Below, piece by piece: positions 4,561 through 20,677 of a DNA stretch of 26,212 bases. The position numbers and the translations under genes are program-made. Location of the stretch: NCBI GenBank assembly GCA_001793775.1, contig MGIN01000027.1, positions 9,855 to 36,066 on the forward strand, written 5' to 3'. This DNA comes from Candidatus Wolfebacteria bacterium GWA1_42_9. Lineage in GTDB: Bacteria; Patescibacteriota; Minisyncoccia; UBA6257; JAGOQP01. Position 1 is the stretch's first letter; each line of letters starts with the position of its first letter. Below the pieces are notes generated by a model. The model was not told where the DNA came from, did not search any database, and worked only from the letters and a program-made list of their open reading frames with translations.

Positions 4561-5424
4561 ATGGGACTAAGGTTGGGACAACATTTTTTAAAAAGCGGTG
4601 AAATTCTGAAAAGAATCATTTCCGCCCTAGATTTAAAAGGGAGGGATTTTGTTGTGGAAATCGGTCCGGGGCACGGAGAACTGACTCGATATTTGGTGGA
4701 ATCTGGTGCTACCGTTATTGCGATAGAAAAGGACAAAAGACTGGTGGAATATCTGAGTAAAAAATTCGAAGCCCGAAGCGCAGAATCCGAAACAATATCA
4801 AAATCTCGAACATTAAATTCAAAACTGAATGTAATCGAAGGTGATGCTCTTGAGGTTTTACCAAACCTAACTCACAACTCACAACTCACAACTCACGACT
4901 GGAAATTAGTTGGTAATATTCCTTACTACATCACCGGGCACCTTCTGAGAATTATCGGAGATTTAGAGCAGAAACCGTCTCTAACAATTCTGCTTATTCA
5001 AAAAGAGGTGGCTAAACGTATCTGCGCTAGACCGCTTGAAATGACCCGTTCGAAAAACTCAGGGTCATCCCGAGCGAGTCGAGGGATGAATTTGCTGGCG
5101 GCCAGCGTTCAGTTCTGGGCGGAGCCCGGGATCTTGTTTTACGTGAAAAAAGGAAATTTTAATCCGCCTCCTAAAATAGATTCCGCTGTAATAAAACTGG
5201 AGACCAAAGATATTGCTGGGTATAAAGTAGATACGAATAAATATTATTCATTTACAAAGAAATTATTTAAGCAGCCGAGAAAAACCATTTTAAACAATCT
5301 GCTGGCAGGAGGTTATGAAAAAGAGAAAATTATTGAAGTTCTTGGTGAAGTTGGAATAAATCCAACTAATCGGCCCCAAAATTTGTCTTTAGACGATATT
5401 ATCCACATCAGTTTACTACTATAG
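4561..5424 (+). CDS. rsmA: 16S rRNA adenine dimethyltransferase RsmA/KsgA, carrying in-frame repeat-derived insertions
   Basis: LGQHFL, VEIGPGHGELT, IEKD, GDAL, VGNIPYYIT, QKEVA, F.PPPKIDSA, F.QPRKTI.NNL and RPQNLS motifs. Confidence 0.95.
   Translation: MGLRLGQHFLKSGEILKRIISALDLKGRDFVVEIGPGHGELTRYLVESGATVIAIEKDKRLVEYLSKKFEARSAESETISKSRTLNSKLNVIEGDALEVLPNLTHNSQLTTHDWKLVGNIPYYITGHLLRIIGDLEQKPSLTILLIQKEVAKRICARPLEMTRSKNSGSSRASRGMNLLAASVQFWAEPGILFYVKKGNFNPPPKIDSAVIKLETKDIAGYKVDTNKYYSFTKKLFKQPRKTILNNLLAGGYEKEKIIEVLGEVGINPTNRPQNLSLDDIIHISLLL
4762..4826 (+). repeat. 7-nt-periodic element in frame in rsmA
   Basis: AAATTCG AAGCCCG AAGCGCA GAATCCG AAAC...; encodes FEARSAESETISKSRTLNSK between the IEKD and GDAL motifs. 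Confidence 0.65.
4869..4896 (+). repeat. Perfect heptamer tandem repeat (AACTCAC)x4 inside rsmA
   Basis: Four exact copies; encodes LTHNSQLTTH before the NIPY motif. Confidence 0.95.
5041..5088. repeat. Double-hairpin palindromic element in frame in rsmA
   Basis: ATGACCC(5041-47)/GGGTCAT(5062-68) and CATCCC(5066-71)/GGGATG(5083-88); encodes MTRSKNSGSSRASRGM. Confidence 0.75.
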
Positions 5425-5488: not shown

Positions 5489-6331
5489 ATGACCAAGCTA
5501 AATTTTAAAAGCCCCATTTTTGCCTTTGGAATAATAGCCGTTATATTTGTTGGGTATTGGTTAATTTTTGGTGTGGGAAACGGTAGTGATTTTGGAAGCA
5601 GTCAGCCGCCAGCCGCCAACCGACAGGAAAATAATTTGTCTTTAGATAATTCACCCGGCTCTTTGCAGTGGGTGGAGAGTCCGGAGAGCGGTAAGTTGCC
5701 TTCGGAGAGCAGCTTAGTTGCTCCCAATTTGACCGATCTCATCTCTAAAAATATCGCCTCCGAGTTTGTTTCTAAAGTGGATTTTTCCAGGGCGTCCTCT
5801 TCTCCCCAGACTCTTTTAGACCAGATTCAGTCAATTGATTTGAAATCCGGCGATCTATCTGAAATTTTAGGGGTTAATCCTTTAGGGCTTGTTAAAGGAA
5901 TTTCCGATTCGGAAATAAAAATTTCTCAGGACAATTCTTTAGAGGCGACAAGAAAATACGGACAAGAATACGCCATTATTTTTTCTCAAGCGGGAGGGAC
6001 TATTGCCAGCGATCCGGACAAATTTGCAGATCTGCTTCTTGCCCCTGAAGATTCGAAAAATTCCCAACAATTATCCCAAATCTCTTTTGATTTGAATCAG
6101 GGGTTTGATAAAATGAAATTGTTGGAAACTCCTTCCGGTGTTGTTGATTTTCATAAAAAAGCCCTAGCGTTTCTCAAAAATTCCGCCATTGTCGTCGAGG
6201 CCGTCAAAGGAGGGGAACAAGACCCGCTCAGGGCTTACTTAGCCGTTCAGGAAGGGGTTCCTATTATCTCTTCCGATATTAATTATCTGGACGAGGCGTT
6301 TAAACAACTCTCTCTTAAATATAAATTCTAA
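5489..6331 (+). CDS. Hypothetical protein with a single N-terminal membrane anchor and a helical extracellular domain
   Basis: 280-aa ORF with hydrophobic segment IFAFGIIAVIFVGYWLIFGV; tightly packed with the downstream genes. Confidence 0.8.
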   Translation: MTKLNFKSPIFAFGIIAVIFVGYWLIFGVGNGSDFGSSQPPAANRQENNLSLDNSPGSLQWVESPESGKLPSESSLVAPNLTDLISKNIASEFVSKVDFSRASSSPQTLLDQIQSIDLKSGDLSEILGVNPLGLVKGISDSEIKISQDNSLEATRKYGQEYAIIFSQAGGTIASDPDKFADLLLAPEDSKNSQQLSQISFDLNQGFDKMKLLETPSGVVDFHKKALAFLKNSAIVVEAVKGGEQDPLRAYLAVQEGVPIISSDINYLDEAFKQLSLKYKF

Positions 6332-6334
6332 AAA

Positions 6335-7888
6335 ATGAACGGCCTTTTTAACAAAACCCTTTCTGTTTTTGTCTTAATAGCTTTTGTTTCTACGTTGACT
6401 TTCGGTTTTTTTCTCCAACCTAAGAAAGCGGAGGCGGGCTGGCCGACCACGGTCATCGCCGATATCCAGGGTGCTTTGAAGTGGACTTGGGAAAAAATAG
6501 AGACGGTATGGGATAAACTCGACAAAAAATATCGTGATATTATTGTCCGTATTATTATCGCCAAGATGCAGATGGATATTATCAGATCGATTGAGGGAGG
6601 AAATTTGTATGTTTCCGATTGGGGAGGTTTTCTTAAAGACACCGTTACCGAGCTGGTTTTCAATGAGTTTAACGAATATGTCCGCAAGGCGAGCGACGGC
6701 GAGGTGGATCTTTGTGTTCCTTACAGCGCCCAACTAATGGCTTTGTCGCTCGTTTCTTTGGGGCTGGCTTCCGGGGTCGGTCAACAATATTACGGGCTGC
6801 CTATCAGATGCACTTTTGATGAATTTAAGGCCAATCTTCAAAACACCTATGATTTTGTCCAGCGAGGCGGCTGGGCGGCTTATGACATCGCCTTTTCCCC
6901 GGGCGCCAATCCGTACTGGATGGCCTGGAGATTAGAGGATTCTATTGTAAGAAGAACAGCCGAGGAAAAAGAAAAGAAAAAAACAGAGGCCGAATCTTCG
7001 GGGGGCTATCTGGGGAACAAAACCTGTCTTGAATCGGAAGCAGGCACTCGCGAGGAGGTGGTAGCTATTTGTTCTGATCCGGATCTGCGTGACGAGGGTG
7101 AAACTCAACAGGAATGTGTAGACAGTATTATGGGGTCAAAATCGGGTAATAAATGTTTAAGAGAGGGTATAATTACTCCGGGAACGGCGGTGGCTGATTC
7201 GGTGATGTCGGCTATCGGAGGAGATTTTGATTATGCAGCCAATGTCCAGAGCGCCATTGCCGCCATTGTTAATGCTTTTGTAGGAAAAATTATAAGGAAG
7301 GGGTTGGCTTCCGGCGCCTCCCAATCCAGTGATTCCTATGGAATAGAGGAAGGAGACCTGACCGGCTCCGGATTCGAGGGATTTGAAGGAGAAAGACACG
7401 AACAGGACTTAAAAGACGCTCAAGAGAAATACGACGACACTCTCTATTATTTGAACAATGACCTGATCCCCGCCGTTCAACGGGTTCTGGCTCTGATTCA
7501 GCAGAAAAACCTTGAGAGTTGTGCCGCCACCCTTCCTTCGGCTGAAATAGACGAAGGTGGAGGGACCCAAAAAACCTATACAATTACCGACCTGATTGCC
7601 CTGGTTAGAGCTTTGGATGCGGTATCTGTTCAGGCTGGGCAGGAGGCAGAAACCAACAGAGCCGAGATAGATTCTTTATTAGCCGACACGGCGGCGACCG
7701 AAGAGCAAATCATAGACGCTTTAACTAGATACGATTCTTTTTACAAAACATACAAAGTCATAATGCAGGACGTTGAATCTGTCTCTGCCGGTCAGGACGG
7801 AAGTCTTTTAATTGTATTGGATAGTGTTTATAACGCTCTGTCAGCGGATGAAATATTCTGTCCGGCACTCCCTTCCACTTCTCCTTAA
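6335..7888 (+). CDS. Secreted Cys-containing hypothetical protein associated with the T4SS-like cluster
   Basis: Signal-peptide-like N-terminus ending PKKAEA; 8 Cys; GGW...NPY and IITPG segments; acidic C-terminal half. Confidence 0.8.
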   Translation: MNGLFNKTLSVFVLIAFVSTLTFGFFLQPKKAEAGWPTTVIADIQGALKWTWEKIETVWDKLDKKYRDIIVRIIIAKMQMDIIRSIEGGNLYVSDWGGFLKDTVTELVFNEFNEYVRKASDGEVDLCVPYSAQLMALSLVSLGLASGVGQQYYGLPIRCTFDEFKANLQNTYDFVQRGGWAAYDIAFSPGANPYWMAWRLEDSIVRRTAEEKEKKKTEAESSGGYLGNKTCLESEAGTREEVVAICSDPDLRDEGETQQECVDSIMGSKSGNKCLREGIITPGTAVADSVMSAIGGDFDYAANVQSAIAAIVNAFVGKIIRKGLASGASQSSDSYGIEEGDLTGSGFEGFEGERHEQDLKDAQEKYDDTLYYLNNDLIPAVQRVLALIQQKNLESCAATLPSAEIDEGGGTQKTYTITDLIALVRALDAVSVQAGQEAETNRAEIDSLLADTAATEEQIIDALTRYDSFYKTYKVIMQDVESVSAGQDGSLLIVLDSVYNALSADEIFCPALPSTSP

Positions 7889-7891
7889 TTT

Positions 7892-10255
7892 ATGGATCTA
7901 ATCAGAAAAAACAAAAAATTTATCTCCAAGGCGCTTTTGATTGTTTTTGTTCTGGTGCCGGTCTTGTATTTTGGGGTAAATATTCAGCATGCGAACGCGC
8001 AGTTTCTGAATATCGCAGGCTTTGCCATCAAATCCGTCCTCAATTTAGTTACATTTTTACTTGGAATTGTTCAGTGGATAGTCGGCGTTGTTTTAATCAA
8101 GTTGGGCGCCATTCTTGTCGGTTTTGTTCTGCTTATTAATCAAACCCTACTGAAGGATTTAAATAACGACCATTTTGTTGTTATCGGTTGGAGGGTTTTC
8201 AGGGATTTGGCCAACCTGGGATTCGTCTTAGGAATAATAATTATCGCCATCTCCACTATCTTGAGATTTAAAACCTATGCCTATCAAAACCTTCTTCCCA
8301 AGTTAATCATTGCCGCCCTGGTGATTAATTTTAGCCTGGTAATCGCCGGTTCCATTATCAGTGTCTCCGACATATTTTCCAACTTCTTCATAAGTTACAT
8401 CTCCGGGAGAGGATCGGACTCATCGGCCATTTCCACCGTCTCTCAGCAGATAGTTGACAGATTTAATTATGTAAAACTTGCTGTCCCGGGGAGTGGTTCT
8501 TCTGGGCAGTGTTCTGTCTATAAAGAAGGCTGGTCGGCGCAAAGAATAGAAGAGGTTTGCCAAGACGAGGCTAGCTGGGAAGCCGCCGGTCAGGATTTTA
8601 GTAGTCCGGAAAATTGCCGAGCTAATCTTCCCGCCTTAATGTGTGCCCAGCGGGCTGGCGCTGACACCCAAGACGTTCCGGATAAGGAATTCTATGCTCA
8701 AATACAAAAAGACAATCTTTCCAATAACTTGTATCAAATAGGAGGAGTTTTTATCTCCGTGGTGGTGGGATTTTTCATATTTTTGAGTCTTCTAGCTTTA
8801 GCCGGCGGATTATTTTTGAGATATTTTTATCTAGCTTTTCTTCTGATTGTTTCTCCTTTGGTTTGGGTACTTTGGGTGTTTCCTTATACAAGAGGCCATT
8901 GGAAAAAATGGTGGGAATCGTTCATTAAATGGACTTTCTTTGCCCCCGTTGTCCTGTTTTTTCTGTACCTGACATTGATTTTCTTGTCCAAGAGCAGCGG
9001 GGGCTATGGGAGCAAGGCCGATGAGATAGCGCTCACGTCCGGTACCAGCATTGCTGGAGTTGGATTCTCTAATATAATAGTTCCTCTTATGGCGGGAGCA
9101 TTGCTTTTCGCCGGGTTAAAAATTTCCCAGACGATGGGATTTGCCGGAGCGTCGTTTGTTCTGAATAGGGCCGAGAAGATGGGGGGGTGGGCGAGGACGA
9201 AGGCGGTTAGAGGAGCTCAAAGAGGAGGGGCGCTGGCTATGAGAAGTAAACCCGGACAATGGGTTAAAAAACCATTGGCAACTTTTGGCGCTACTAAAGT
9301 TGGAAGATTTCTGGGTGCCGGCAAAGCAGCTCAAGGGTTGGAAGCGGCAACGGTTAAACTGGAAAGAAAATCTCAGGCTTATCTTGAAGACAAAAAGAAA
9401 TCTTTTGGAACAATGTCTTCGGAAAATATCGTCGGTTTGTGGAAAACAATGACGGGTGAGGAGCAGGCGGCAGCGATGGAAGTTTTGGCCTCCAGAAACG
9501 ACCTAGGCGATCTCAAAGACCAGAATATGACCACTATCGGTGGTTCTTTGGCAGCAATGAGAAGATTCGGAAGAGAGAAGGAAGCCAAAGAACTTGAAAG
9601 AAAATTGGGAATGAATCAAACAATGGCTGAACGATTAAAAATTTTAAACACTTCCGCCCGGGGTTCGGCAGAACATACCCAGGCGCTGGCAGAGTACAGA
9701 AGAGCGGCCGCCGACCATTACGGTAAATACTCCACCGATCACTGGAGAGATTTCGGGTCTAACTTGGGAAACAATGTTTTTTCGGGAAGAACCTTCGGCG
9801 GGTTGAGAGACGATGTTTATCAGGAAATGTCGGGCCAAGCCGCTCAGTATGCCAGCGATGATTACAGAAAATCGATTCACGCCATTGCTCCTAAAATGAG
9901 AAACAATACAAACCTCTCCAATTTCAATAAAGCCACCATCGAAAGAAAAATCGGGTGGCTGAGGGGACACGTCTCGGGTCTGGACTTATCAATCCCAGCC
10001 AACCAAGAACTATTGGGGCAGTTTAATAATTATGCCGCAGAGTTTGATAATGCCGTCAAGAACAAAAACGGCGACTTCTCTGATCTCGCTGAAATGATGA
10101 GTAAATGTGGAGACGCGAGTATCAGAGATTTTGCCAACCATATTAGGGGGCAAATCTCTGCCTTTGCGATGGGGGCTTATTCGGCGGCTCCGCCGACGCC
10201 GGGAGCGGCACCAACACCTACACCCACGCCGCCACCGACCGGGAAAGGGCCGTAA
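7892..10255 (+). CDS. VirB6/TrbL-like polytopic inner-membrane protein with a long C-terminal extension
   Basis: GWRVFRDLANLGF...LLPKLIIAALVINFSL and LRYFYLAFLLIVSPLVWVLWVFP...WKKWWESFIKWTFFAPV helices; ~370-aa hydrophilic tail ending in a Pro/Thr-rich stretch. Confidence 0.7.
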   Translation: MDLIRKNKKFISKALLIVFVLVPVLYFGVNIQHANAQFLNIAGFAIKSVLNLVTFLLGIVQWIVGVVLIKLGAILVGFVLLINQTLLKDLNNDHFVVIGWRVFRDLANLGFVLGIIIIAISTILRFKTYAYQNLLPKLIIAALVINFSLVIAGSIISVSDIFSNFFISYISGRGSDSSAISTVSQQIVDRFNYVKLAVPGSGSSGQCSVYKEGWSAQRIEEVCQDEASWEAAGQDFSSPENCRANLPALMCAQRAGADTQDVPDKEFYAQIQKDNLSNNLYQIGGVFISVVVGFFIFLSLLALAGGLFLRYFYLAFLLIVSPLVWVLWVFPYTRGHWKKWWESFIKWTFFAPVVLFFLYLTLIFLSKSSGGYGSKADEIALTSGTSIAGVGFSNIIVPLMAGALLFAGLKISQTMGFAGASFVLNRAEKMGGWARTKAVRGAQRGGALAMRSKPGQWVKKPLATFGATKVGRFLGAGKAAQGLEAATVKLERKSQAYLEDKKKSFGTMSSENIVGLWKTMTGEEQAAAMEVLASRNDLGDLKDQNMTTIGGSLAAMRRFGREKEAKELERKLGMNQTMAERLKILNTSARGSAEHTQALAEYRRAAADHYGKYSTDHWRDFGSNLGNNVFSGRTFGGLRDDVYQEMSGQAAQYASDDYRKSIHAIAPKMRNNTNLSNFNKATIERKIGWLRGHVSGLDLSIPANQELLGQFNNYAAEFDNAVKNKNGDFSDLAEMMSKCGDASIRDFANHIRGQISAFAMGAYSAAPPTPGAAPTPTPTPPPTGKGP

Positions 10256-10276
10256 ACCAAACAGAGTAAATAAAAC

Positions 10277-11206
10277 ATGATGATTGTATCCAGAGAACAG
10301 GTACTGCAAAGATGGGACAGCACACCCGATCTGATTAAGGAAGCGGTCTATTCGCCAACCAATAACGACACCCTGGCGAATATCTCTTCCAGTTTTCATC
10401 TTTCCGAGGAGAGGCATCGGGACCTGGCCTATCTTTGTCTTTTAGTTTTTTTTGGTTTTATTCATCTTCAAGATCTCTATAGGGAGATAAAAAATTCTCT
10501 GGGAATCGATGCCCGAATAGCCCTGGATATCTATCATGAGCTGGACCAAAAAATCTTCTCTCCTTTCCACAAAGAGATTGAAGAAAACTATCTGAAATTT
10601 AAAATGGGGGTGACCAGGCCGGAGGAAGTAACCGAACCCGCAGTCGGTCCTTCCCAGATAGTTTTAAAAAAGGAACCGGCTTCAGTTCTCAATTTGAAAC
10701 CGGAGATACCTCGTTTAGCTGAAGAGTATCAGTCATCCGGGCAGGCTCCAGCAGCCGAACCAAAAAGAATTGAAGTTTCTCAAATGGAAAGAGGAACAAA
10801 ACCCGTCACTCCTCCGGCAACCGGCGTTCAACCGGCTCCAGCCAAACCGGAAGAGTCCGGGTTGGAAATGGGACCGATGATTATTCATAAAGAGGAAGAA
10901 TCCGAATCAATTTCCCAGGTGAGAGCGACAGACGCTTTTAAGCAAAATACCTTTGGAGGATTCAGGGGATCGTTTAAAGCGCCGACTATCGCCAGACCTC
11001 AGGAAACCGTCTCTAGAGCCGAGGTAGAAATGCCGACGACAAAAAAAGCAGAAGCCGGAGAGATGGGGAAAATTCCAGTGGTGGTTAAAAAATATGAAGA
11101 ACAGCCCAAAACAATACACTATGGGGTTTTTAGGACGGAGCTGAAGCCGAAAGAGAGCGACAAGAGCGGTGATGACGGGAAAACCATAGATTTGTCCAAG
11201 TTATGA
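10277..11206 (+). CDS. Hypothetical protein: helical N-terminal domain plus a Pro/Glu/Lys-rich, probably disordered C-terminus
   Basis: 309-aa ORF co-oriented with the cluster; no clear signal peptide. Confidence 0.8.
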   Translation: MMIVSREQVLQRWDSTPDLIKEAVYSPTNNDTLANISSSFHLSEERHRDLAYLCLLVFFGFIHLQDLYREIKNSLGIDARIALDIYHELDQKIFSPFHKEIEENYLKFKMGVTRPEEVTEPAVGPSQIVLKKEPASVLNLKPEIPRLAEEYQSSGQAPAAEPKRIEVSQMERGTKPVTPPATGVQPAPAKPEESGLEMGPMIIHKEEESESISQVRATDAFKQNTFGGFRGSFKAPTIARPQETVSRAEVEMPTTKKAEAGEMGKIPVVVKKYEEQPKTIHYGVFRTELKPKESDKSGDDGKTIDLSKL

Positions 11207-11255
11207 TGTATTTGAAATTTGAAAATTAAATATTATTTCGAATTTTATTAAAACA

Positions 11256-11801
11256 ATGGCTCAGTTTGAAGTTCCCCAATTTATTGATGTCGAGAGTAAA
11301 ATTGTCGGGCCGCTGACATTAAAGCAGTTTGGTCTGATTGCCGTTCCCAGTTTAGCCTCTTTTTTCCTCTTTTTTGTTTTAGCCAGATTTCTCTGGGTGA
11401 TCGTTGCTTTTATTTTGGTAATGGCGGGAGTTCTTTTCGCTTTTATTAAAATTGGCGGCCGACCACTATATTTGATAACTATCTACGCCTTCCAATTCCT
11501 TTGGAAACCAAAGCTTTATTTATGGCGAAGGGCGGTGGTTCAGGAAGAAATCGCCATTCCTTCTCCGGCGGGAGGCCTTTCAGCGGTTTCGGCCAAGAGA
11601 AATGCTTTAAAGTCGGCAGCAACGGGAGTTTACGGAAGCGTCACCAAGCTCTGGCAGAACCTGACGACCACTAAAAACCCCATTCCCAAAAGGGAAAAAG
11701 CGGTTCCCAAAAAATCCATCTCTGAGATTAAGGAGCAGTATATGGTTTTTCGAAAAGTCAGTGGAGAAAGAGAAGTGGCTAAAAGAGTGGATTATAGATA
11801 A
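11256..11801 (+). CDS. PrgI-family (VirB3-like) membrane protein
   Basis: QFEVPQFIDVESKIVGPLTLKQF N-terminus followed by two TM helices and IKIGGRP; lies before the VirB4-like genes. Confidence 0.85.
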   Translation: MAQFEVPQFIDVESKIVGPLTLKQFGLIAVPSLASFFLFFVLARFLWVIVAFILVMAGVLFAFIKIGGRPLYLITIYAFQFLWKPKLYLWRRAVVQEEIAIPSPAGGLSAVSAKRNALKSAATGVYGSVTKLWQNLTTTKNPIPKREKAVPKKSISEIKEQYMVFRKVSGEREVAKRVDYR

Positions 11802-11826
11802 AACGTTCTTATTAGTTAATTTGTTG

Positions 11827-11835
11827 TGTTATAAT
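11827..11835 (+). promoter_or_regulatory. Extended -10 promoter, probably giving a leaderless mRNA
   Basis: TGTTATAAT ends 7 nt before the ATG at 11843. Confidence 0.6.
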
Positions 11836-11842
11836 CTCACAT

Positions 11843-12532
11843 ATGTCCGATAAAACCGCGGAAAAAATCATTACCCCACCGAATTCCACCCAGCAATTTG
11901 TTGACGTGGAAGAAGTAAAAGACGGAATTGTTATTCTTAAAGGAGGTTCTTTAAGGGCGGTGATTATGGTCGCTGGCATTAACTTTGAGCTTAAATCCGA
12001 AGAGGAGCAGGACATTATTACCGGCGCCTACCAGGATTTTCTTAACTCCCTGGATTTTTCGGTGCAAATTATCATCCATTCCCGAAAACTGAATATAGAT
12101 AATTATCTCAGGAAAATGGAAGAGGTTCGTTCCAGGGAACCAAACGAGCTTCTGCGTAATCAGATTGATGAATATATCGCTTTTGTCAGGGGTTTTGTCA
12201 AAGAAAACGAGATTATGACAAAAACTTTTTTTGTGGTTGTTCCCTATGAGGCTGGTGGGGCGGAAGCGATTAGAAAAGGGGTTATGGATTTTGTTCCCTT
12301 TCTCAGTTCAAAGAAAAAGTCTGACAAAAAAAAGACAGAAAGCCGGGAGCAGGGTGTTATTCAGTTAAGACAGAGGATAGATCAGGTAGCTTCCGGTCTG
12401 GAAAGAATTGGTTTGCGAGCCGTTCCTTTAAATGACGAGGAACTGATAGAGCTTTACTACAATCTTTATAATCCAGAGACGACAGAGAAGGAGCTTCCTA
12501 AAAAAGAAACTTCTCCCAATCCTGAATCCTAA
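11843..12532 (+). CDS. Protein resembling the VirB4/TraE N-terminal domain, without an ATPase motif
   Basis: TQQFVDVEEVKDG, INFELKSEEEQ, FLNSLDFSVQIIIHSRKLNI, and FFVVVPY; sits between PrgI and the VirB4 ATPase. Confidence 0.7.
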   Translation: MSDKTAEKIITPPNSTQQFVDVEEVKDGIVILKGGSLRAVIMVAGINFELKSEEEQDIITGAYQDFLNSLDFSVQIIIHSRKLNIDNYLRKMEEVRSREPNELLRNQIDEYIAFVRGFVKENEIMTKTFFVVVPYEAGGAEAIRKGVMDFVPFLSSKKKSDKKKTESREQGVIQLRQRIDQVASGLERIGLRAVPLNDEELIELYYNLYNPETTEKELPKKETSPNPES

Positions 12533-12600
12533 TTACAAATACCAAATGAAAATTCAGATGTTAAAATCCCATATTTGGAATTAGATATTAGAACTTTGAC
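12518..12600. repeat. Imperfect inverted arrangement of ~7-nt-periodic repeats
   Basis: AAT at 12518, 12525, 12531, 12538 and 12545; ATT at 12573, 12580 and 12587 on the opposite arm. Confidence 0.5.
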
Positions 12601-12614
12601 GTTAAATATACTAT

Positions 12615-14369
12615 ATGCCCGAGGAAATTAAAATTGTTAAACCCTACAGTAGCGAAGAAAAAGAGGTTAAGAATCTAATTGCCCCAGCCGCTTTGGAGGT
12701 TAATCAGAGTCATATTAAAATTGGCAATAAGTTTGCCAAAACTCTTTTTGTTTTTTCTTATCCCCGCTATCTCTCCAGTGGTTGGTTTTCTTCTATCATC
12801 AATGTCGCCAAACTTTTTGACATCTCCATTTTTGTTCATCCGATTGATACTGCCTTAGCTCTCAGGCGTCTTCGCAAAAAAGCGGCTCAGATTGAAGCCG
12901 AGATCACCGAAAAGGAATCCAAGGGTTTTGTCCGTGATCCGATGCTGGAAACGGCCTTTGCCGATATTGAATCTTTGCGGGACAATCTTCAACAAGCCCG
13001 GGAACGTCTTTTTGACACGGCGGTTTACATTACTATTTACGGCGATTCTTTGGAAAAATTGAATGAATTGGAAGAAATCGTCACCAATCTTTTTGAGAGC
13101 AAATTAATTTACGTTAAGCCGGCCATCTTTCAGCAGGTGGAAGGATTGATTTCCGCTCTTCCTCTTTGTCAGGACAAATTAGCCATTCGTACTCCCCTAA
13201 ACTCGGGACCAATCTCCTCTTTCTTCCCTTTTGTTTCTATGGATCTGACCTCGGAGGAAGGAATCATGTACGGTATCAACCAGCACAATAGCACCCTGGT
13301 TATTTTTGACAGGTTTTCTCTGGAAAACGGCAACATGGTGGTTTTTGCCAAATCCGGCGGAGGAAAATCTTACGCTTCCAAACTGGAAATTTTGAGGTCG
13401 CTGATGATAGGCACCGAGGTAATCGTCATTGATCCGGAAAACGAATATAAAAATCTTTGTGATACGGTGGGAGGAACTTATTTCAAAATTTCCTTGACCT
13501 CTGACCAGCACATCAATCCTTTTGACATTCCTGTTGTTCCCGAGGGAGAAGATTCGGCCGGTGTTTTTAAATCCCATATTCTGACATTGACCGGACTTTT
13601 GAAGATAATGCTGGGTGATATAACCGTTGAAGAAGAGGCGATTTTGGATAGAGCTCTGACCGAAACATACGCTTCCCGCGACATTACTCCCGACAATCCT
13701 AATTTTCTCAACTTGGAAGCGCCGATTTTGTCCGATTTTGAAACGGTTCTGCGAAACATGGAGGGTGGACGGTCAATGGCCGACAAGCTTTATCGCTTTA
13801 CTCAAGGAACTTACTCGGGATTTGTCAATCAGAAAACTAACGTGGATGTAAACAATCGACTGGTGGTTTTCTCCATCAGGGATTTGGAGGAAGAACTGCG
13901 GCCGGTGGCCATGTATGTTATTTTGAATTTTATCTGGAATCTGGTGCGCTCTCAGTTAAAGAGAAGAGTTTTAGTGGTGGACGAGGCCTGGGTGATGATG
14001 AAGTATCCCGAGGGTGCCGCCTTTCTTTTTGCTCTCGCCAAAAGGGGAAGAAAATATTATCTGGGGCTGACAACCATCACTCAAGAGGTGGAAGATTTTT
14101 TGAGTTCTCCTTACGGCAAGCCGATTATCACCAACTCATCGCTTCAGCTGCTTTTGAAGGAAGCTCCGGCCAGCATTGATATTGTTGCCAAAACTTTTGG
14201 TCTAACCGAAGCGGAAAAAAATCTTTTATTGGAGGCGGGAGTGGGACAGGGATTGTTTTTTGCCGGACTAAAACACGTGGCTATTCAGGTGGTCGCTTCC
14301 TACTTTGAAGACAAGGTGATTACCACCAAACCCCAGCAGTTATTGGGAGAAGAAACGCAGTTGATATAA
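12615..14369 (+). CDS. VirB4/TraC/ConE-like ATPase
   Basis: YGIN, Walker A AKSGGGKS (13347-13370), VIDPENEY, INPFD, Walker B VVDEAW, KRGRKY, TITQEVEDF and G.GQGLFF motifs. Confidence 0.9.
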   Translation: MPEEIKIVKPYSSEEKEVKNLIAPAALEVNQSHIKIGNKFAKTLFVFSYPRYLSSGWFSSIINVAKLFDISIFVHPIDTALALRRLRKKAAQIEAEITEKESKGFVRDPMLETAFADIESLRDNLQQARERLFDTAVYITIYGDSLEKLNELEEIVTNLFESKLIYVKPAIFQQVEGLISALPLCQDKLAIRTPLNSGPISSFFPFVSMDLTSEEGIMYGINQHNSTLVIFDRFSLENGNMVVFAKSGGGKSYASKLEILRSLMIGTEVIVIDPENEYKNLCDTVGGTYFKISLTSDQHINPFDIPVVPEGEDSAGVFKSHILTLTGLLKIMLGDITVEEEAILDRALTETYASRDITPDNPNFLNLEAPILSDFETVLRNMEGGRSMADKLYRFTQGTYSGFVNQKTNVDVNNRLVVFSIRDLEEELRPVAMYVILNFIWNLVRSQLKRRVLVVDEAWVMMKYPEGAAFLFALAKRGRKYYLGLTTITQEVEDFLSSPYGKPIITNSSLQLLLKEAPASIDIVAKTFGLTEAEKNLLLEAGVGQGLFFAGLKHVAIQVVASYFEDKVITTKPQQLLGEETQLI

Positions 14370-14480
14370 TGCGAAGGCTGTAAATTGTGAACCCAACTTT
14401 TTATTCTATGGAAAATGTTGGTTGCGGGTTGGTAAATTTGTATACTGGTAATCAATTTGTCATTCGTCGGTTGTGTTGTT

Positions 14481-14963
14481 ATGAATGAAAAAGAACAAAA
14501 AAGTGAAAAGACTCAACAAAGAACAGAGATGTTGGATAAGCAGGGAGGAGAGACAGAGGAAAGCAACGAAACGGAAAACAAAGAAGGCGAGACAGGAGAG
14601 AACGAAGATGGGACATCAGAAAAAATCGAATCCCTGCAACAGGGTCCCCGTTTTGATTTCATGGAATCTTTTTTTTATGTGTCGATGGCTGTTTTGAGCG
14701 ATATATTTGACGGCCTATGGATATCAAGATTTTTCTTTGCTCCCGCTACCCTGCTCTGGCTTTATATGAAAGGGCTTAATAACGTGATTTCAAAAAATGC
14801 CATTGCCCAAGGAGTAGAACTCATTCCAGTCATAGGATTTTTGCCATTGAGCACCATAGCTGCGATTTTAACTATTTGGGTCACCAACAATCCCGAATCA
14901 TTTAACAAGGTTTTTGGCATAGCTGGAAAAATTTTCCAAAAAATAGCTAAAAAGGGAAAATAA
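14481..14963 (+). CDS. Small membrane protein with an acidic, disordered N-terminus
   Basis: ATG at 14481 is in frame with the called ORF (14457). Glu/Lys/Gly-rich first ~50 aa, then hydrophobic helices including ELIPVIGFLPL. Confidence 0.75.
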   Translation: MNEKEQKSEKTQQRTEMLDKQGGETEESNETENKEGETGENEDGTSEKIESLQQGPRFDFMESFFYVSMAVLSDIFDGLWISRFFFAPATLLWLYMKGLNNVISKNAIAQGVELIPVIGFLPLSTIAAILTIWVTNNPESFNKVFGIAGKIFQKIAKKGK

Positions 14964-14971
14964 GTGAATTA

Positions 14972-14980
14972 TGCTATAAT
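14972..14980 (+). promoter_or_regulatory. Extended -10 promoter, probably giving a leaderless mRNA
   Basis: TGCTATAAT ends 7 nt before the ATG at 14988. Confidence 0.6.
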
Positions 14981-14987
14981 ATATAAG

Positions 14988-15701
14988 ATGAGTTTTAAAA
15001 AGATAAAAATTTTAATACTTGTTATCGGCACCATGGCTGTCTTTTGGACCGTTAACCTGGCTTTGGCCGCCGAGCCGCTCTTACTTTTTTCCTGGAAAGC
15101 CCAGAACTTCGTTCCTGATTGGTTTGGAGGAAAATCTTTGCCTATCAACCAGACAAAAATTTTAATGTCCTTTGAAGCTGTCAGCCAGAGCCAAGCGGAT
15201 TTGGGTAAGATTATGGACGTCTCGGAAAAGGAGATTAGCTGGTATGTCAACGATAAAACGGTAGGTAAAGGGAAAGGATTAAAGTCTGTTACCGTTACCA
15301 AAGACGATTTTCCCCGGGATTCCATTGATGTCAAGATTAAGGGGGAGTTTTATGACGCTGATGCCAAAGAGAGTTATTTTGTCAACAAGTATTTTACCGT
15401 CCCTATCTCTGAACCGGAAATTGTTTTAAGCTACAAGAAAACGGAAAACTATTTTTCTTTGAACGAGACGGCTAGATTTGATCTATTTCCTTTCTTTTTT
15501 AACGTTGCCAGCGATTTTTTGGATATTGGATGGAGAGTGAATGAGCGGGAGATTAATCCTTTGCTCAGGGAGAATCTTTTTTTAGATTTGAAAGTGTCGG
15601 ATATGCCTCCCACTGGGCAGGTGAGAATTAGTGCTTCTGCCAAAAATGCCAGAGATGTGCTGGAAGATGCCTCTAAGTCGCTGATTTTTAAAGTTTATTA
15701 G
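14988..15701 (+). CDS. Secreted or surface protein, beta-strand-rich (possibly Ig-like)
   Basis: MSFKKIKILILVIGTMAVFWTVNLALA-AEP is a typical signal peptide. ATG at 14988 is preferred over the GTG at 14964. Confidence 0.8.
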   Translation: MSFKKIKILILVIGTMAVFWTVNLALAAEPLLLFSWKAQNFVPDWFGGKSLPINQTKILMSFEAVSQSQADLGKIMDVSEKEISWYVNDKTVGKGKGLKSVTVTKDDFPRDSIDVKIKGEFYDADAKESYFVNKYFTVPISEPEIVLSYKKTENYFSLNETARFDLFPFFFNVASDFLDIGWRVNEREINPLLRENLFLDLKVSDMPPTGQVRISASAKNARDVLEDASKSLIFKVY

Positions 15702-15715
15702 TATTAACTGCGTTC

Positions 15716-15760
15716 GCGGATTTACCCTCAAAAATTTTATCTGATAAAACTTAGGAGGGT
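15716..15760. repeat. ~45-bp palindromic element, intergenic copy (second copy inside mutM)
   Basis: ACCCTC/GAGGGT outer stem and TTTTATC-T-GATAAAA inner stem; 36/45 identical to 19928-19972; followed by 9-mers AACTGATTC AACTGATTG ATGCTGATA. Confidence 0.85.
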
Positions 15761-15796
15761 GAACTGATTCAACTGATTGATGCTGATAAAACTACT

Positions 15797-16834
15797 ATGA
15801 TGAATACTCTGGGGAAAATAATTATTATATTGGCCGTTGTCCTGATGGGGGTGAGTTTTTTTGCGGAGGCGGTTTTGGCGGAAACCTTTAATTTGGAGTA
15901 CCCGGATTTTGTCAACCCGGAGATAACCAAAACTCCGGCTGAGTTTATCAACAAGCTCTATATCTATGCTTTGGGGATATCAGGCACTTTGGCGGTGATG
16001 ATGATTGTTTACGGAGGGGTGAAATACGCTATTAATCCGGGAAACACATCGGCCCAGGGAGACGCCACCGACATTATCAAAAACGCTGTTTTTGGAGTTG
16101 TTCTCTTGGCAGGCGCCTATTTGATTTTGGAAACGATTAATCCGTCGCTGGTGATTTTAAAGAATCCGGGATTGGAAATGGTGCCAGTGTCAACCAGCAC
16201 TGAAGGAACAACTCCTCCACCCACAAAAGAAGAGGCTACCGAACTTATTAGAGTGGCTAAGTGGCTGTTGGATAATGAGGGTGGTAAATTTAGTTTTTCT
16301 GTCAACGCGACTTGCGGATCCATCTCCCATGCCAAAGGAAATCTGACAGATGTATCCAACGGAGAACTTCCTCTGGTCTGCAGTCCGGATTGTGTTTGTA
16401 AAAAAGGAGGAACGAGCGGGACGGTTACGTTAAATCTTAAGATGCTTAAAGGTCTCCAGTTTATTGTTATTAATTCCACCGTTCCGAAATCTGTGATTAC
16501 TAGTTTTACCGGAGGAAAACACAATACTACCTCTCAACACTACCAAGGGAACGCTGCCGACTTCTCTCCGGTGAATACCAGTCCGGACCAATGGGATAAA
16601 TTATTAACTAGTTTAAGAAACCCGAACGCCGGAGAAGCTTCTCTGGCTAAATGCGAGGCTCGTAAGTGGACGGATACTAATGGCAATGGTCAGAAAGATT
16701 CTCGAAAATCTGAGAGCAATCCTAATGGAGACGAGTACTCGACCGAGTTTTATAATTTTTGTTCTGATCTTTTTAATAACGCCTCATATCTTACTGGCAA
16801 GTTGGATAATATTCATATACATGCCAACTGGTAA
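15797..16834 (+). CDS. VirB2/TrbC-like CPR pilin domain fused to a C-terminal M15-type (LAS) zinc peptidase domain
   Basis: After a signal peptide: two hydrophobic helices with a YGGVKY...GN...A..IIKNAVFG...LILETINP pilin pattern. C-terminus has SQHYQGNAAD (SxHxxGxAxD, 16532-16561) and HIH (16814-16822). Confidence 0.8.
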   Translation: MMNTLGKIIIILAVVLMGVSFFAEAVLAETFNLEYPDFVNPEITKTPAEFINKLYIYALGISGTLAVMMIVYGGVKYAINPGNTSAQGDATDIIKNAVFGVVLLAGAYLILETINPSLVILKNPGLEMVPVSTSTEGTTPPPTKEEATELIRVAKWLLDNEGGKFSFSVNATCGSISHAKGNLTDVSNGELPLVCSPDCVCKKGGTSGTVTLNLKMLKGLQFIVINSTVPKSVITSFTGGKHNTTSQHYQGNAADFSPVNTSPDQWDKLLTSLRNPNAGEASLAKCEARKWTDTNGNGQKDSRKSESNPNGDEYSTEFYNFCSDLFNNASYLTGKLDNIHIHANW

Positions 16835-16836
16835 TC

Positions 16837-18069
16837 ATGTCTTCTAAAAAAAAGAAAGTCACAATATTGATTATTTTGGTCGTCCTGGCGGCGGCGGGGG
16901 CAGGAACTTTTTTTGCTTTAAAGTCTGGCGTAACTATTCCTTTTCTGGGACTATCTGAACAGCTAAGCAAACAGCCGGGAGTGGATATAGGCAAGAAACC
17001 TGTTTTGCAGCCGCCACAACAGGACAAAGATGTTTATGTGGAAGAAGACGACCTGGCAGCTTATTACCAAGAGCAAAAACAGAAACTTTTTGCTTTAACC
17101 GCCGAGCCAATAATTGACTATTGGGTAGCTTCTTCCACGGCCATTGGTGACACTGCCACCTCCTCCATTCTGGCGGCCAGTGTTTTTTATATCAATGAAA
17201 AAGGAGACATTCTTCAGGTTAAAGAGACGGGGAAGGCATCACCGATAGTTTCTTCTTCCTTTGGAAAACCCCTCTGGCTTAAACAAAACGTCTTAGGGAG
17301 CCAGATAGCGGTTAAGTTTGAATCGGGGAAATTTGTCTTGTTTGACGTCAAGAACAAATCCTGGCGGGAAATGGAAGACGGAGTAACGGCGGTGGATTTC
17401 TCTCCCGATGGCCAGAGAATCGCCTTTCTCAAGGAGAATCAAAGTCAGACATCGGTTTATATTCAAGACTTGGCCAAGGCTAAACAACCGGTAACTTTAA
17501 TAGTTTCTCTGACAGCGGTTGACTTTAATCTCCTGTGGACAGAAACCGGCTCGTTGGCACTGACACCCAAACCCTCTTATTTTGTTAACGGCCAAGCTTG
17601 GCTGATTAATTTGAGTTCTCGCTCTCTTCGCTGGCTGGGAGGAGGCAGTGGTTACTCTTTGGTTTTTTCTTCTCCGTTTAACTTCGGCCTGGAATTTTCC
17701 AGCTCTGCAAGAACAGAAAGTAAGATTGGTTTGATTGATAAGTCGGGAAAATCACTAGCGGAACTTTCCTTCTCCACCGTGGCAGATAAATGCTCTTTTT
17801 CTTTGGAAAAAAAGGTAGCTTTCTGTGCCGTTCCTTATTCTGCCAACAAATCCTCTGGGTTGGTTTTGCCGGACGACTTTTTAAAAAGAGCTGTTTACTT
17901 TAAGGATGAGATTTATCGGATAGATCTTGAATCTTCGGCGGTGGATATTGTTTTTGATCTGGAAGATACCCTTTTTGATATGGTTGATATCAAACACCGG
18001 AGCGACCAGCTGTTCTTCATTAATCGCTACGATAATCAACTCTACCTCTACAATCTAGGATCATTATAA
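16837..18069 (+). CDS. Membrane-anchored TolB/WD40-like beta-propeller protein
   Basis: KKKK followed by an N-terminal TM helix; VDFSPDGQRIAFL blade motif and repeated beta-strand pattern. Confidence 0.7.
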   Translation: MSSKKKKVTILIILVVLAAAGAGTFFALKSGVTIPFLGLSEQLSKQPGVDIGKKPVLQPPQQDKDVYVEEDDLAAYYQEQKQKLFALTAEPIIDYWVASSTAIGDTATSSILAASVFYINEKGDILQVKETGKASPIVSSSFGKPLWLKQNVLGSQIAVKFESGKFVLFDVKNKSWREMEDGVTAVDFSPDGQRIAFLKENQSQTSVYIQDLAKAKQPVTLIVSLTAVDFNLLWTETGSLALTPKPSYFVNGQAWLINLSSRSLRWLGGGSGYSLVFSSPFNFGLEFSSSARTESKIGLIDKSGKSLAELSFSTVADKCSFSLEKKVAFCAVPYSANKSSGLVLPDDFLKRAVYFKDEIYRIDLESSAVDIVFDLEDTLFDMVDIKHRSDQLFFINRYDNQLYLYNLGSL

Positions 18070-18070
18070 A

Positions 18071-19405
18071 ATGAATAAGGAGAACCCCCACAGTTCAAAA
18101 CTGACTAAATATTTGAACCAGCCTGAGTTTCGGCCGGTTTTTTATCTGGTGCCTTTGATTGCGGCGGCGGCCGTCATTAACGTCATCTATCTTTCGGGAA
18201 TTTGGCTTTTTGTCAGCACCGGTATTTTAATCATTTCGGGGGCGTTGATGGTGGCTATTAGTTGGGTCCTAGCCAAAGCCAATTTAAACATTAAAATCAA
18301 AACTCTTCAGATGGACAGTATTATTTCCCATCTGCCATCGGGAGTTTTGGCCTATGACAATGACTTCAACGTTTTAATCTTTAATCCGGCCGCTCAGGAA
18401 ATTTTTGGCCTTTCCCAATCAGAAATTTTTGCAAGAAAGCTTTCAGCGGAGATGGCCTCCGACCCGAAATTCAAACTCCTGGCTCAGGTCATTTTTCCCT
18501 CTTTGGCGCCGACGGTTGTCAAAAGATCGGAGCCGGGAACCTATCCCCAGATAGTGGACATTTCTTTTAGCGACCCCTCTTTGGATTTGAGAGTAGTGAC
18601 CGACCGGGTTGCCGACGAAACGGGAAAGATAACCGGTTTTGTTAAATTAATCACTAACCGCACCCGGGAGATGGAACTTTTAAAGTCAAAAACCGAATTC
18701 ATCACCGTCGCCGCCCATCAACTAAGAACTCCTTTAACCGCCATTAACTGGTCGTTTGAATCGCTGGAATCGGCCAATCTTCCTCCCCAACAGAAGGAAT
18801 TAGTAGACACCGGATTTATGGCTGCCAAGAAAATGCTTAAAACCGTCAACGACCTTCTGGACGTTTCCAAAATCGAAGAGGGAAAATTCGGCTATCAATT
18901 TGAAGAGGTCAATCTGGTCTCTTACCTGGAGGAAATATTGGCTCAGAGCAACGATTTCGCCAAACAACTCGGAATTAAGCTTTATTTTCAAAGGCCGGCC
19001 AATTCCAATCTGATGGTCTTCATGGACAAACAGAAAGTAAGCATGGTTCTTTCCAATCTTTTGGACAATGCCATTAAATACAATGTGGAAAACGGGGAAG
19101 TGACGGTGTCGGTTGAAGAGGAAAAAGACGAGCCTTTTATTAGAGTTTCAGTTAAAGATACGGGCATCGGTATCCCCGCTGATCAGATAGATAAGTTATT
19201 CACTAAATTCTTCCGGGCTGAAAATGTTGCCCGGTATTCTCCCGACGGAACAGGGATGGGCCTTTATATTGCCAGAAACGTCGTTGTTCGCCACGGTGGG
19301 CGGATTTGGGCCGAGTCGGAATTGAACCGGGGAACCACTTTTTATTTTACCTTACCGACTAAACAAGAAGTTATTCCCAAAAGGGAAATGATAGAGTTTG
19401 AGTAA
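18071..19405 (+). CDS. Sensor histidine kinase (two TM helices, PAS, HisKA, HATPase_c), no cognate response regulator in the window
   Basis: H box VAAHQLRTPLT, N box NLLDNAIKY, G1 DTGIGIP, F box LFTKFFRA, G2 GTGMGLYIA; PAS-like FNPAAQEIFG. Confidence 0.93.
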   Translation: MNKENPHSSKLTKYLNQPEFRPVFYLVPLIAAAAVINVIYLSGIWLFVSTGILIISGALMVAISWVLAKANLNIKIKTLQMDSIISHLPSGVLAYDNDFNVLIFNPAAQEIFGLSQSEIFARKLSAEMASDPKFKLLAQVIFPSLAPTVVKRSEPGTYPQIVDISFSDPSLDLRVVTDRVADETGKITGFVKLITNRTREMELLKSKTEFITVAAHQLRTPLTAINWSFESLESANLPPQQKELVDTGFMAAKKMLKTVNDLLDVSKIEEGKFGYQFEEVNLVSYLEEILAQSNDFAKQLGIKLYFQRPANSNLMVFMDKQKVSMVLSNLLDNAIKYNVENGEVTVSVEEEKDEPFIRVSVKDTGIGIPADQIDKLFTKFFRAENVARYSPDGTGMGLYIARNVVVRHGGRIWAESELNRGTTFYFTLPTKQEVIPKREMIEFE

Positions 19406-19433
19406 AGAGCTTTGTCTCCACTCTGGTGGAGTA

Positions 19434-19602
19434 ACAAAACCTTTACCCCGCTCCAATTTTGCCAGTGTTTATCCTGCGGAGCGCGGGTACCGAATAGGTA
19501 CACCCCATTACGAGCGAAGCGCTTCGCCCCAGGGAGGGATGGAGTTACTCACTCCTCGCACTTCGCTTGGTGAGACAGAAGCAAAATTGGGGCGGGGTGC
19601 TC
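19434..19602. mobile_element. MITE/REP-like non-coding element with 18-bp terminal inverted repeats (long copy)
   Basis: ACCCCGCTCCAATTTTGC (19445-62) and GCAAAATTGGGGCGGGGT (19581-98) match 17/18; internal hairpins GTACC/GGTAC, GCGAAG/CTTCGC and GGAGT/ACTCC; related copy at 20617-20677. Confidence 0.7.
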
Positions 19603-19649
19603 AATACTGTAGTTATTCTTCATTATCATTCAGAATAAACATTATTGGC

Positions 19650-20586: not shown

Positions 20587-20614
20587 TCCCGCTCTTTTGA
20601 GAAAAAGGGCGGGA
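20587..20614. terminator. GC-rich hairpin after mutM (terminator-like, or part of the adjacent element)
   Basis: TCCCGCTCTTTT-GAGA-AAAAGGGCGGGA: 12-bp stem with one G-T pair and a GNRA-type loop; no U-tract on the + strand. Confidence 0.45.
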
Positions 20615-20616
20615 CC

Positions 20617-20677
20617 ACAAAACCTTTACCCCGCCCTAATTTTGCTTCTGTCTCACCAAGCGAAGTGCGGGGTGCTC
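20617..20677. mobile_element. MITE/REP-like element (short copy)
   Basis: Same ACAAAACCTTTACCCCGC start and GCGGGGTGCTC end as 19434-19602. 20628-20669 is the reverse complement of 19557-19598 (41/42). Confidence 0.7.

Follow-up and report, generated by a model that had tools for sequence, protein, structure and literature searches.

We analysed a stretch of 26,212 nucleotides (nt) from Candidatus Wolfebacteria bacterium GWA1_42_9 (assembly GCA_001793775.1, contig MGIN01000027.1, positions 9,855 to 36,066), which we call the window. The organism is a member of the Paceibacteria from groundwater. Its genome is available as 551 kb in 32 contigs with a completeness of 85.9%, and the source contig measures 54 kb. 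Between the housekeeping genes rsmA and mutM the window contains twelve open reading frames (ORFs), all on the + strand, with intergenic gaps of -8 to 95 nt (Table 1). The original prediction, made from the letters of the window alone, had described these twelve co-oriented genes as a type IV secretion system (T4SS)-like surface machine fixed in the chromosome. The ORF map bears out the arrangement, and eleven of the genes (5489-18069) form a conserved module that can be read as a T4SS. The twelfth codes for a PAS-HisKA-HATPase sensor kinase and falls outside the module. All things considered, the module is probably a chromosomal, relaxase-less T4SS of the Patescibacteria type. Its conservation was followed in a synteny set of 97 loci, 17 cut from relatives and 80 from GTDB species genomes, with iterated family models; presence counts take in only those loci that have enough flank. 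Six module proteins are referred to by the start of their ORFs (u5489 to u16837). The two ORFs previously read from 14481 and 14988 open earlier in frame, at 14457 (TTG) and 14964 (GTG).

Table 1. Genes of the T4SS-like module and its neighbours, in window coordinates (aa, amino acids).
Feature	Position	Strand	Remarks
rsmA/ksgA, left housekeeping flank	4561..5424	+	RrnaAD 6e-42; upstream of module in 47/53 loci
u5489, 280 aa, first module gene	5489..6331	+	present in 62/71 loci
u6335, 517 aa	6335..7888	+	present in 62/71 loci
Likely VirB6-like polytopic membrane protein, 787 aa	7892..10255	+	present in 69/73 loci
u10277, 309 aa	10277..11206	+	present in 68/80 loci, always between the VirB6-like gene and PrgI
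PrgI family (VirB3-like) small membrane protein, 181 aa	11256..11801	+	present in 82/84 loci
TrsD-like protein, 229 aa (VirB4 N-terminal domain as own gene)	11843..12532	+	present in 87/87 loci
VirB4 ATPase core, 584 aa	12615..14369	+	Walker A nt 13347-13370, Walker B nt 13968-13985
u14457, 168 aa (160 aa from ATG at 14481)	14457..14963	+	present in 52/79 loci
u14964, 245 aa (237 aa from ATG at 14988)	14964..15701	+	present in 40/77 loci
VirB2-like T4SS pilin with putative hedgehog/LAS-type zinc peptidase domain	15797..16834	+	present in 58/71 loci
u16837, 410 aa, last module gene	16837..18069	+	present in 63/68 loci
PAS-HisKA-HATPase sensor histidine kinase	18071..19405	+	adjoins module in 18/68 loci
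mutM/fpg, right housekeeping flank	19398..20576	+	H2TH 2.2e-29, Fapy_DNA_glyco 1.7e-24

The motor of the module is a VirB4 ATPase. Its core matches the NCBIfam model conju_CD1110 with 375 bits (cut-off 325) over profile positions 182-732 of 752, and P-loop_TraG with an E-value of 5.8e-30. Both nucleotide-binding motifs are intact (Walker A, AKSGGGKS, at residue 245; Walker B, VLVVDE, at residue 452). The TrsD-like protein encoded upstream matches Pfam TraC_F_IV (positions 15-178) and NCBIfam TrsD (3.8e-11), with further matches to CD1110 (positions 2-118) and VirB4_plasma (positions 91-233). The original prediction had listed a single VirB4-like gene; the motor stands, but it consists of these two ORFs. 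TrsD and VirB4 are separate ORFs, with TrsD directly upstream of virB4, in each of the 87 loci with flank, so that we can eliminate the possibility that the split gene is a pseudogene. PrgI, TrsD and VirB4 cover consecutive stretches of the 894-position Mbov_0397 model (25-96, 91-233 and 290-893, all below the cut-off). Since the three proteins match successive parts of one VirB4 model from a Mycoplasma integrative and conjugative element (ICE), we conclude that the motor is encoded in pieces and is not broken. An apparent fusion of PrgI and TrsD in one relative was dismissed, as an in-frame stop separates both genes (L031:8010-8975).

The membrane components of the predicted machine are less uniformly recognised. 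PrgI of the window scores just below the Pfam PrgI cut-off (7.2e-6; 26.9 bits vs 27), and all 18 orthologues tested match this family, the best with 3.9e-11; two of them also match TcpE. The 787-aa protein matches NF045848 (MMCAP2_0566 family conjugal transfer protein) with 1.4e-6, below the family cut-off. Its orthologues (n = 60) gave sub-threshold matches to TrbL/VirB6 of Pfam (10), NF046089 CD3337/EF1877 (9), MMCAP2_0566 (3) and Mbov_0396 (1). Comparison of the family with PDB profiles returned low-complexity matches in the C-terminal region only. About eight hydrophobic segments, a Cys-bearing loop of ~130 residues (157-285) and a hydrophilic C-terminal region of ~370 residues would give the protein the layout of an "extended VirB6", and it is likely VirB6-like. 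Of the components named by the original prediction, PrgI, VirB4 and the pilin are thus backed by family matches and the VirB6-like protein by weaker, sub-threshold evidence.

The pilin is a composite protein. Residues 45-111 match T4SS_pilin (5.5e-10), and the pilin hairpin is followed by a Thr/Pro linker and a C-terminal domain of ~200 residues. A profile search of the 85.9% complete assembly found no T4SS_pilin gene besides 15797-16834. The C-domain matches Peptidase_M15_3 (0.011) and contains the motifs SQHYQGNAAD (246-255) and HIH (340-342), in which H248, D255 and H340 are putative zinc ligands; H242 is likewise invariant. A profile of 19 C-domains aligns, over a stretch that spans the zinc site, with the N-terminal domains of Sonic, Indian and Desert hedgehog (E 1.8e-5), with H113, H119, D126 and H211 invariant in the numbering of the C-domain alignment. 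By these matches the C-domain is a predicted hedgehog/DD-peptidase (LAS) fold and a putative peptidase.

The carrier of this head is the conserved part of the family: 70 of the 75 pilin-family proteins in the loci match T4SS_pilin (69 of 74 excluding that of the window). The C-domains of the orthologues are highly variable and span 127-614 aa. Among the other 74 proteins, eight carry SLT (best 3.8e-13), three SLT_3, one Phage_lysozyme2 and approximately 20 the LAS motif. This variety of muralytic modules on one carrier is good indirect evidence that the predicted activity of the head is to cut peptidoglycan. Cell-wall hydrolases act as VirB1 analogues in monoderm T4SSs; here, the predicted pilin head and the SLT and lysozyme domains on its orthologues would take this place. 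The accessible parts of PMC12102498 and PMC10633639 make no mention of pilin-hydrolase fusions. Moranbacteria-like loci (e.g. L093, L094, L108-L110, L114 and L115) contain arrays of two or three pilin genes whose C-terminal parts are unrelated, and the family of the window has one pilin gene.

The remaining six module proteins had been proposed as conserved, lineage-specific subunits. They are conserved syntenic partners, found in 40/77 to 68/80 loci, and five of them (u5489, u6335, u10277, u14457 and u14964) have no Pfam or NCBIfam family of their own. The exception is the propeller u16837, which does not fit the proposal, as it has a counterpart in Bacillota. Searches of Pfam and NCBIfam with 136 orthologues of the six families returned only propeller and TSP3-repeat matches, plus one Ig_3. 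Models and family matches yielded predicted folds for four of the six, each with an N-terminal anchor and a predicted extracytoplasmic part: a four-helix bundle, a helical protein, a tandem Ig-like protein and a TolB-like propeller.

u5489 consists of a hydrophobic anchor segment (4-22), a disordered Ser/Pro linker and a four-helix bundle (~150-280), and is extracytoplasmic by prediction. The AlphaFold2 model is all-helical with a mean pLDDT of 82. Its best VIA-align neighbours (Z up to 10.0) are designed bundles and four-helix-bundle chemoreceptor sensor domains, which is a generic likeness. The model is a bundle and not an NTF2 fold, so that no VirB8 was seen in u5489. TSP3 (calcium-binding) repeats occur in the linker of 10 of the 24 orthologues scanned (e.g. 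L110:2962-4080); the linker of the window protein is plain Ser/Pro. u6335 begins with an anchor or signal; a conserved helical N-domain that bears Cys comes next, and residues 351-510 at the C-terminal end form a helical bundle plus a beta hairpin. The AlphaFold2 model has a mean pLDDT of 72.7, with values above 90 in the C-domain. No match to u6335 was found in Pfam or among PDB profiles, a profile search for homologous proteins returned eight hypothetical proteins, and Foldseek against the PDB gave no match at E <= 0.001 for either u6335 or u5489. With VIA-align, u6335 resembles generic helical bundles (Z up to 9.7); TraC/VirB5 (1r8i_A) appears amid unrelated bundles with a Z of 7.8 and 136 of 187 residues aligned. 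A role of u6335 as VirB5 may be taken as a lead only. In two genomes the counterparts of u5489 and u6335 form one ORF (L025:15502-17697, - strand, 731 aa; L059:2628-5012, + strand, 794 aa). These natural fusions suggest that the two proteins act together as physical partners.

u14964 combines an N-terminal anchor with two Ig/PKD-like beta-sandwich domains in an ESM Atlas model (pTM 0.71). Structural neighbours are PKD, Ig and Big_7 clusters with TM scores of 0.44-0.55 and hypothetical proteins of Minisyncoccota with 0.69-0.74; the Ig_3 match of Pfam mentioned above belongs to one of its orthologues. u16837 has an N-terminal anchor and a TolB-like beta-propeller with weak Pfam propeller matches, and 6 of its 22 orthologues scanned match TIGR02800 propeller_TolB (best 8.6e-8). 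u10277 starts with a conserved domain of ~110 aa, beyond which the tail is rich in Pro and little conserved; it has no clear membrane segment and no match in Pfam, NCBIfam or PDB profiles. u14457 has an acidic N-terminal region, a conserved C-terminal membrane region and no family match in Pfam or NCBIfam. Paralogy among these families, for example of u14457 as a second pilin, was rejected, as hhalign gave probabilities of 28% at most and no credible match. A VirB8-like scaffold with an NTF2 fold was found in no module protein by Pfam or NCBIfam, and the models of u5489 and u14964 are four-helix and Ig-like, respectively.

The gene order of the module is fixed. Across the 97 loci a single order recurs, namely rsmA, u5489, u6335, VirB6-like, u10277, PrgI, TrsD, VirB4, u14457, u14964, pilin and u16837. 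A VirB4 was detected in 39 of 41 relatives; it is 78-91% identical to that of the window inside the family and 46-67% identical in the wider order. Among the 80 nearest genomic relatives the identity is 54-90%, and the names of these genomes are of Patescibacteria type (Candidatus Paceibacterota, Wolfebacteria, Paceibacter and similar) or belong to mislabelled metagenome-assembled genomes. The composition of the block is ordinary (GC 0.436 vs 0.421 for the genome; tetranucleotide z-score -0.6 to -0.1), no direct repeats bracket it, and no window protein matches a relaxase, a type IV coupling protein (T4CP) or a recombinase. The original prediction had noted that relaxase, VirD4, integrase, att-like repeats and a compositional break are missing from the window, and domain searches together with the repeat and composition checks agree. 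At the level of the genome, no match was found to the relaxase families Relaxase, MobA_MobL, Mob_Pre, TrwC, Rep_trans and Replic_Relax (PF03432, PF03389, PF01076, PF08751, PF02486 and PF13814), a search that covers 85.9% of the genome and leaves MOB_C, MOB_M, MOB_H and MOB_B aside. Tyrosine (PF00589) and serine (PF00239) recombinases likewise gave no match in the 551-kb assembly; hence no XerC/D-type gene was seen, which may be a gap in the assembly. These comparisons argue that the block is vertically inherited and is not an ICE. The earlier view of a Gram-positive-style T4SS fixed in the chromosome is thereby supported, and the patchy distribution with relaxase, T4CP and integrase nearby that would have spoken for an ICE is not what the synteny reveals: the order is conserved and none of these genes is near.

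The statement that there are no conjugation genes holds for the window but not for the genome. Three VirD4-like ATPases are encoded on other contigs, two on contig C31 and one on contig C10 (an 809-aa frame). The C31 pair (L004:13673-18063, VirD4/TrwB-like) is without a membrane segment of its own, and the second gene is cut by the contig end. The first ORF of the pair measures 574 aa; after it come the genes for a protein of 430 aa, which has a membrane helix at its N-terminus, and for a membrane protein of 186 aa. Both VirD4-like genes stand directly after ftsA, ftsZ, ribonucleotide reductase, VKOR, secD, secF and a sigma-like gene. In a closed relative (G006) VirD4-like genes lie at 256 and 421 kb and virB4 at 151 kb. 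The occurrence of VirD4-like genes in 40 of 41 relatives makes them look like part of the core genome, with their own role. In another relative of the same order (G024), the VirB4 match (C3:1922-3604) contains three in-frame TGA codons and the VirD4-like match (C1:35166-36641) four, with no other stops; TGA may be read as a sense codon in this genome.

Taken together, the module is almost certainly an instance of the chromosomal, relaxase-less T4SS already published for Patescibacteria, and as such a known kind of system. A survey by Quinonero-Coronel (2025) reports VirB4 in 2,417 of 3,035 genomes as a monophyletic clade nested in MPF-FATA. In that survey TrsD is the most frequent partner, and PrgI, VirB6 and VirB2-like pilins also occur; relaxases are few, t4cp genes lie at a distance from virB4, and KsgA is one of the families often encoded close to virB4 (PMC12102498). 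In Southlakia epibionticum, a Gram-positive-like, pilin-bearing T4SS cluster without recognisable coupling protein and relaxase is essential for growth on the host (Wang 2023, PMC10633639), and the VirD4 homologue is non-essential (PMC12102498). A 2025 review presents the Patescibacteria T4SSs as established newcomers and speculates on a pilus conduit (PMC12857230). With the systems of the survey and of S. epibionticum (SEML1_0006-0019) the module shares VirB4 with adjacent TrsD, PrgI/VirB3, a VirB6-like protein and a pilin near virB4, and also the lack of a relaxase, distant t4cp homologues, the chromosomal site by ksgA and a wide vertical distribution. Our loci repeat the features of this clade: TrsD in 87/87, a pilin in 58/71 and rsmA in 47/53, with VirD4-like genes unlinked. 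In contrast to the single pilin with a fused, predicted peptidase described here, S. epibionticum has an array of six pilins, and its peptidase and lysozyme have genes of their own downstream of virB4. Partners with four-helix-bundle, helical, Ig-like and propeller folds are not described in the accessible parts of PMC12102498 and PMC10633639.

Outside the candidate phyla radiation the best VirB4 match is 35% identical. The best plasmid relatives (29-35% identical) come without exception from monoderms, and most of them carry a CD1110 annotation; by its best NCBIfam models and these plasmid matches VirB4 appears to group with the proteins of Firmicutes, Actinobacteria and Tenericutes. The plasmid of Embleya sp. 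(NZ_CP108778.1; MPF-FATA) shares the order VirB6-like, PrgI, VirB4, with a VirB4 that is 35% identical, and both systems include a cell-wall hydrolase, a putative one in the window. Unlike in the window, virB4 of this plasmid is immediately followed by a T4CP, Replic_Relax and NlpC/P60, and a pilin is missing; the window has a pilin and neither T4CP nor Replic_Relax nearby. Mycoplasma ICEs provide further likenesses, all below cut-offs: the VirB6-like protein matches MMCAP2_0566, the pilin weakly Mbov_0395 and VirB4 Mbov_0397. In contrast to the genes studied here, those of the Mycoplasma ICE belong to a mobile element, and one Mycoplasma polypeptide corresponds to three genes.

A closer counterpart in layout occurs on an 898-kb replicon of Pontibacillus sp. 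ALD_SL1 (NZ_CP062975.1, 351-362 kb). This cluster comprises two pilins, a 779-aa VirB6-like protein, PrgI, TrsD, a VirB4 that is 35% identical to that of the window, a peptidoglycan DD-metalloendopeptidase and a transmembrane-anchored propeller. The proteins match our family models with E-values of 1.3e-7 to 2.7e-49 (propeller 1.3e-7; VirB6-like protein 4e-11). The annotation shows neither a relaxase nor a T4CP within 12 kb, the replicon is typed as non-mobilizable, and the cluster lies beside flagellar genes. Unlike the organism of the window, Pontibacillus is a free-living member of the Bacillota; its hydrolase is a separate protein of 1050 aa, and counterparts of u5489, u6335, u10277, u14457 and u14964 are missing from the cluster. 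Since this cluster carries both a pilin and a propeller, neither is confined to Patescibacteria.

How might the machine work? In the reading that we favour, VirB4 and TrsD would dock onto PrgI and VirB6 in the membrane and provide the force that pulls pilin out of the membrane to build a short tube or fibre across the cell wall. VirB4 is the known pilin dislocase of T4SSs. We lean, with some reserve, towards a machine that builds such a pilus-like tube. The muralytic pilin head, a peptidase here and a lytic transglycosylase elsewhere, would open the peptidoglycan of the cell itself, of the host or of both; that it acts on the host wall is possible but somewhat doubtful. The anchored extracytoplasmic proteins could form a wall-spanning scaffold, the role that VirB8-like proteins have in other monoderm systems, and the whole would serve contact-dependent exchange with a host cell instead of plasmid transfer. 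Repurposing for host attachment, penetration or exchange, as the original prediction proposed, would repeat the published reading (PMC10633639, PMC12102498, PMC12857230). That the system is not conjugative is very likely. A weak hint that a relative transcribes the module comes from one sediment metatranscriptome (run X19), with short contigs of 90-97% identity over VirB6-like, PrgI, TrsD, VirB4 and u14964.

Several observations weigh against this picture. With 85.9% of the genome in 32 contigs, a relaxase could sit in the unassembled part, and MOB_C and MOB_M, the commonest relaxases of Patescibacteria (PMC12102498), lie outside the families searched here. The function is extrapolated from Saccharibacteria, which are another class than Paceibacteria. 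The VirB6 assignment is based on sub-threshold matches, and neither the family searches of the module proteins nor the models of u5489 and u14964 revealed a VirB8-like fold. The RNA evidence consists of assembled contigs of a relative, for which DNA carry-over is possible. Finally, a globular head of 200 aa on the sole pilin may fit poorly into a helical pilus, and the "pilin" could be a membrane anchor for a wall hydrolase without any pilus.

This last thought leads to a complex for wall remodelling or adhesion, with neither pilus nor conduit, in which the "pilin" would hold a muralytic enzyme beside VirB4 and VirB6. The bulky head on the only pilin gene, the range in length of the C-domains (127-614 aa) and the resemblance of the Ig-like and propeller partners to surface or adhesion modules would suit it. 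We nonetheless regard it as quite unlikely, given that the pilin domain is the part conserved (70 of 75), that VirB4 is established as a pilin dislocase, that some lineages have arrays of two or three pilin genes and that tubular structures have been seen at a host interface (preprint 10.64898/2026.06.21.733656). At the other end stands the transfer module of an ordinary ICE whose relaxase, coupling protein and integrase would have to be encoded beyond the window or in parts of the genome that were not assembled. Membership of VirB4 in the conjugative CD1110 family, conjugation ATPases as nearest plasmid relatives and VirD4-like ATPases in a genome that is 85.9% complete would be consistent with it. 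An ICE is highly improbable, however, and we reject it on several results: the same order and housekeeping flank over 97 loci with VirB4 in 39/41 relatives, normal composition, no flanking repeats and no match in the genome to six relaxase and two recombinase families. The neighbours of the VirD4-like genes are ftsAZ, a ribonucleotide reductase gene and secDF, and in the closed relative over 100 kb separate the VirD4-like genes from virB4. The true conjugative comparator, the Embleya plasmid, has its T4CP, Replic_Relax and NlpC/P60 right after virB4.

Two further explanations keep the machine and change its cargo. It may import nucleic acids or other macromolecules of the host into a nucleotide-auxotrophic cell, in the manner of Helicobacter ComB or Sulfolobus Ced, which likewise have a VirB4-family motor without relaxase and a proposed essential or uptake role. 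A partial match of VirB4 to the Ced DNA-import ATPase CedB (8.5e-13) and the absence of a relaxase, hence of export substrate processing, point in this direction. The T4SS has been named as a candidate route of nucleotide acquisition (PNAS perspective, PMC11665869), and a preprint reports that a cultivated member feeds on host RNA and shows structures at its interface that may be T4SS pili (10.64898/2026.06.21.733656). Yet the CedB match spans only the shared P-loop region and is far weaker than the 375-bit match to the conjugative family, the other subunits are unrelated so that the module is no member of the ComB or Ced systems, and none of the module proteins was recognised as a nuclease or as binding nucleic acids. 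The direction of transport is not readable from sequence, and uptake seems unlikely to us on balance. The machine may instead deliver effector proteins into the host cell or onto its surface, and so manipulate or lyse the host. Because the cluster lacks a coupling protein and a relaxase, Wang 2023 leans towards export of proteins or "an alternative capacity" (PMC10633639), and an exported pilin-peptidase would be a candidate enzyme for the host wall. Most effector-translocating T4SSs need a coupling protein, however, with Bordetella Ptl and Brucella VirB as exceptions; here the VirD4-like genes are unlinked, VirD4 is dispensable in S. epibionticum (PMC12102498), and no effector candidates are evident in the module. 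We judge effector export to have the same limited chance as uptake.

Within the favoured reading of a relaxase-less Patescibacteria T4SS, a more specific proposal can be made. The Paceibacteria pilin might be a carrier of interchangeable wall-cutting heads that, with an anchored partner set replacing VirB8 (the u5489-u6335 pair, the Ig-like protein and the TolB-like propeller), makes a peptidoglycan-breaching pilus aimed at the host wall. In this complete form the proposal is improbable. Were it true, the relaxase-less Pontibacillus module would mean that the parts date back to an older system of monoderms, with no co-option inside Patescibacteria.

The T4SS of Patescibacteria is near-universal in a huge bacterial radiation and essential for epibiotic growth in the one species tested. 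To this known kind of system the present locus adds no new one; it can serve as a clean reference for Paceibacteria, in which eleven genes keep a fixed order. The added detail comprises the swapped pilin heads, the u5489-u6335 fusion, predicted folds of four partner proteins and the Pontibacillus homologue. Of these, the lineage-swapped muralytic head on a single pilin and the fused pair are leads, and the Bacillota homologue might allow study in a cultivable organism.

The gene that follows the module (18071-19405) codes for a kinase with the Pfam domains HATPase_c (8.6e-31), HisKA (6.8e-15) and PAS (1.4e-7). The 18 of 68 loci in which it adjoins the module are mostly from its own family, and the kinase is a family-level neighbour and no part of the T4SS. 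Two response-regulator genes were found, on other contigs than the kinase. A promoter scan returned 26 matches against 23.7 expected from shuffled sequence, which is no excess. On the right flank, mutM is bracketed by a 29-nt direct repeat, 93% identical, at 19434-19462 and 20617-20645 of the window. DNA contigs from two runs rejoin position 20600 to 19434 with 16 other letters between. Window DNA also recurs unchanged in groundwater and soil metagenomes from several studies.

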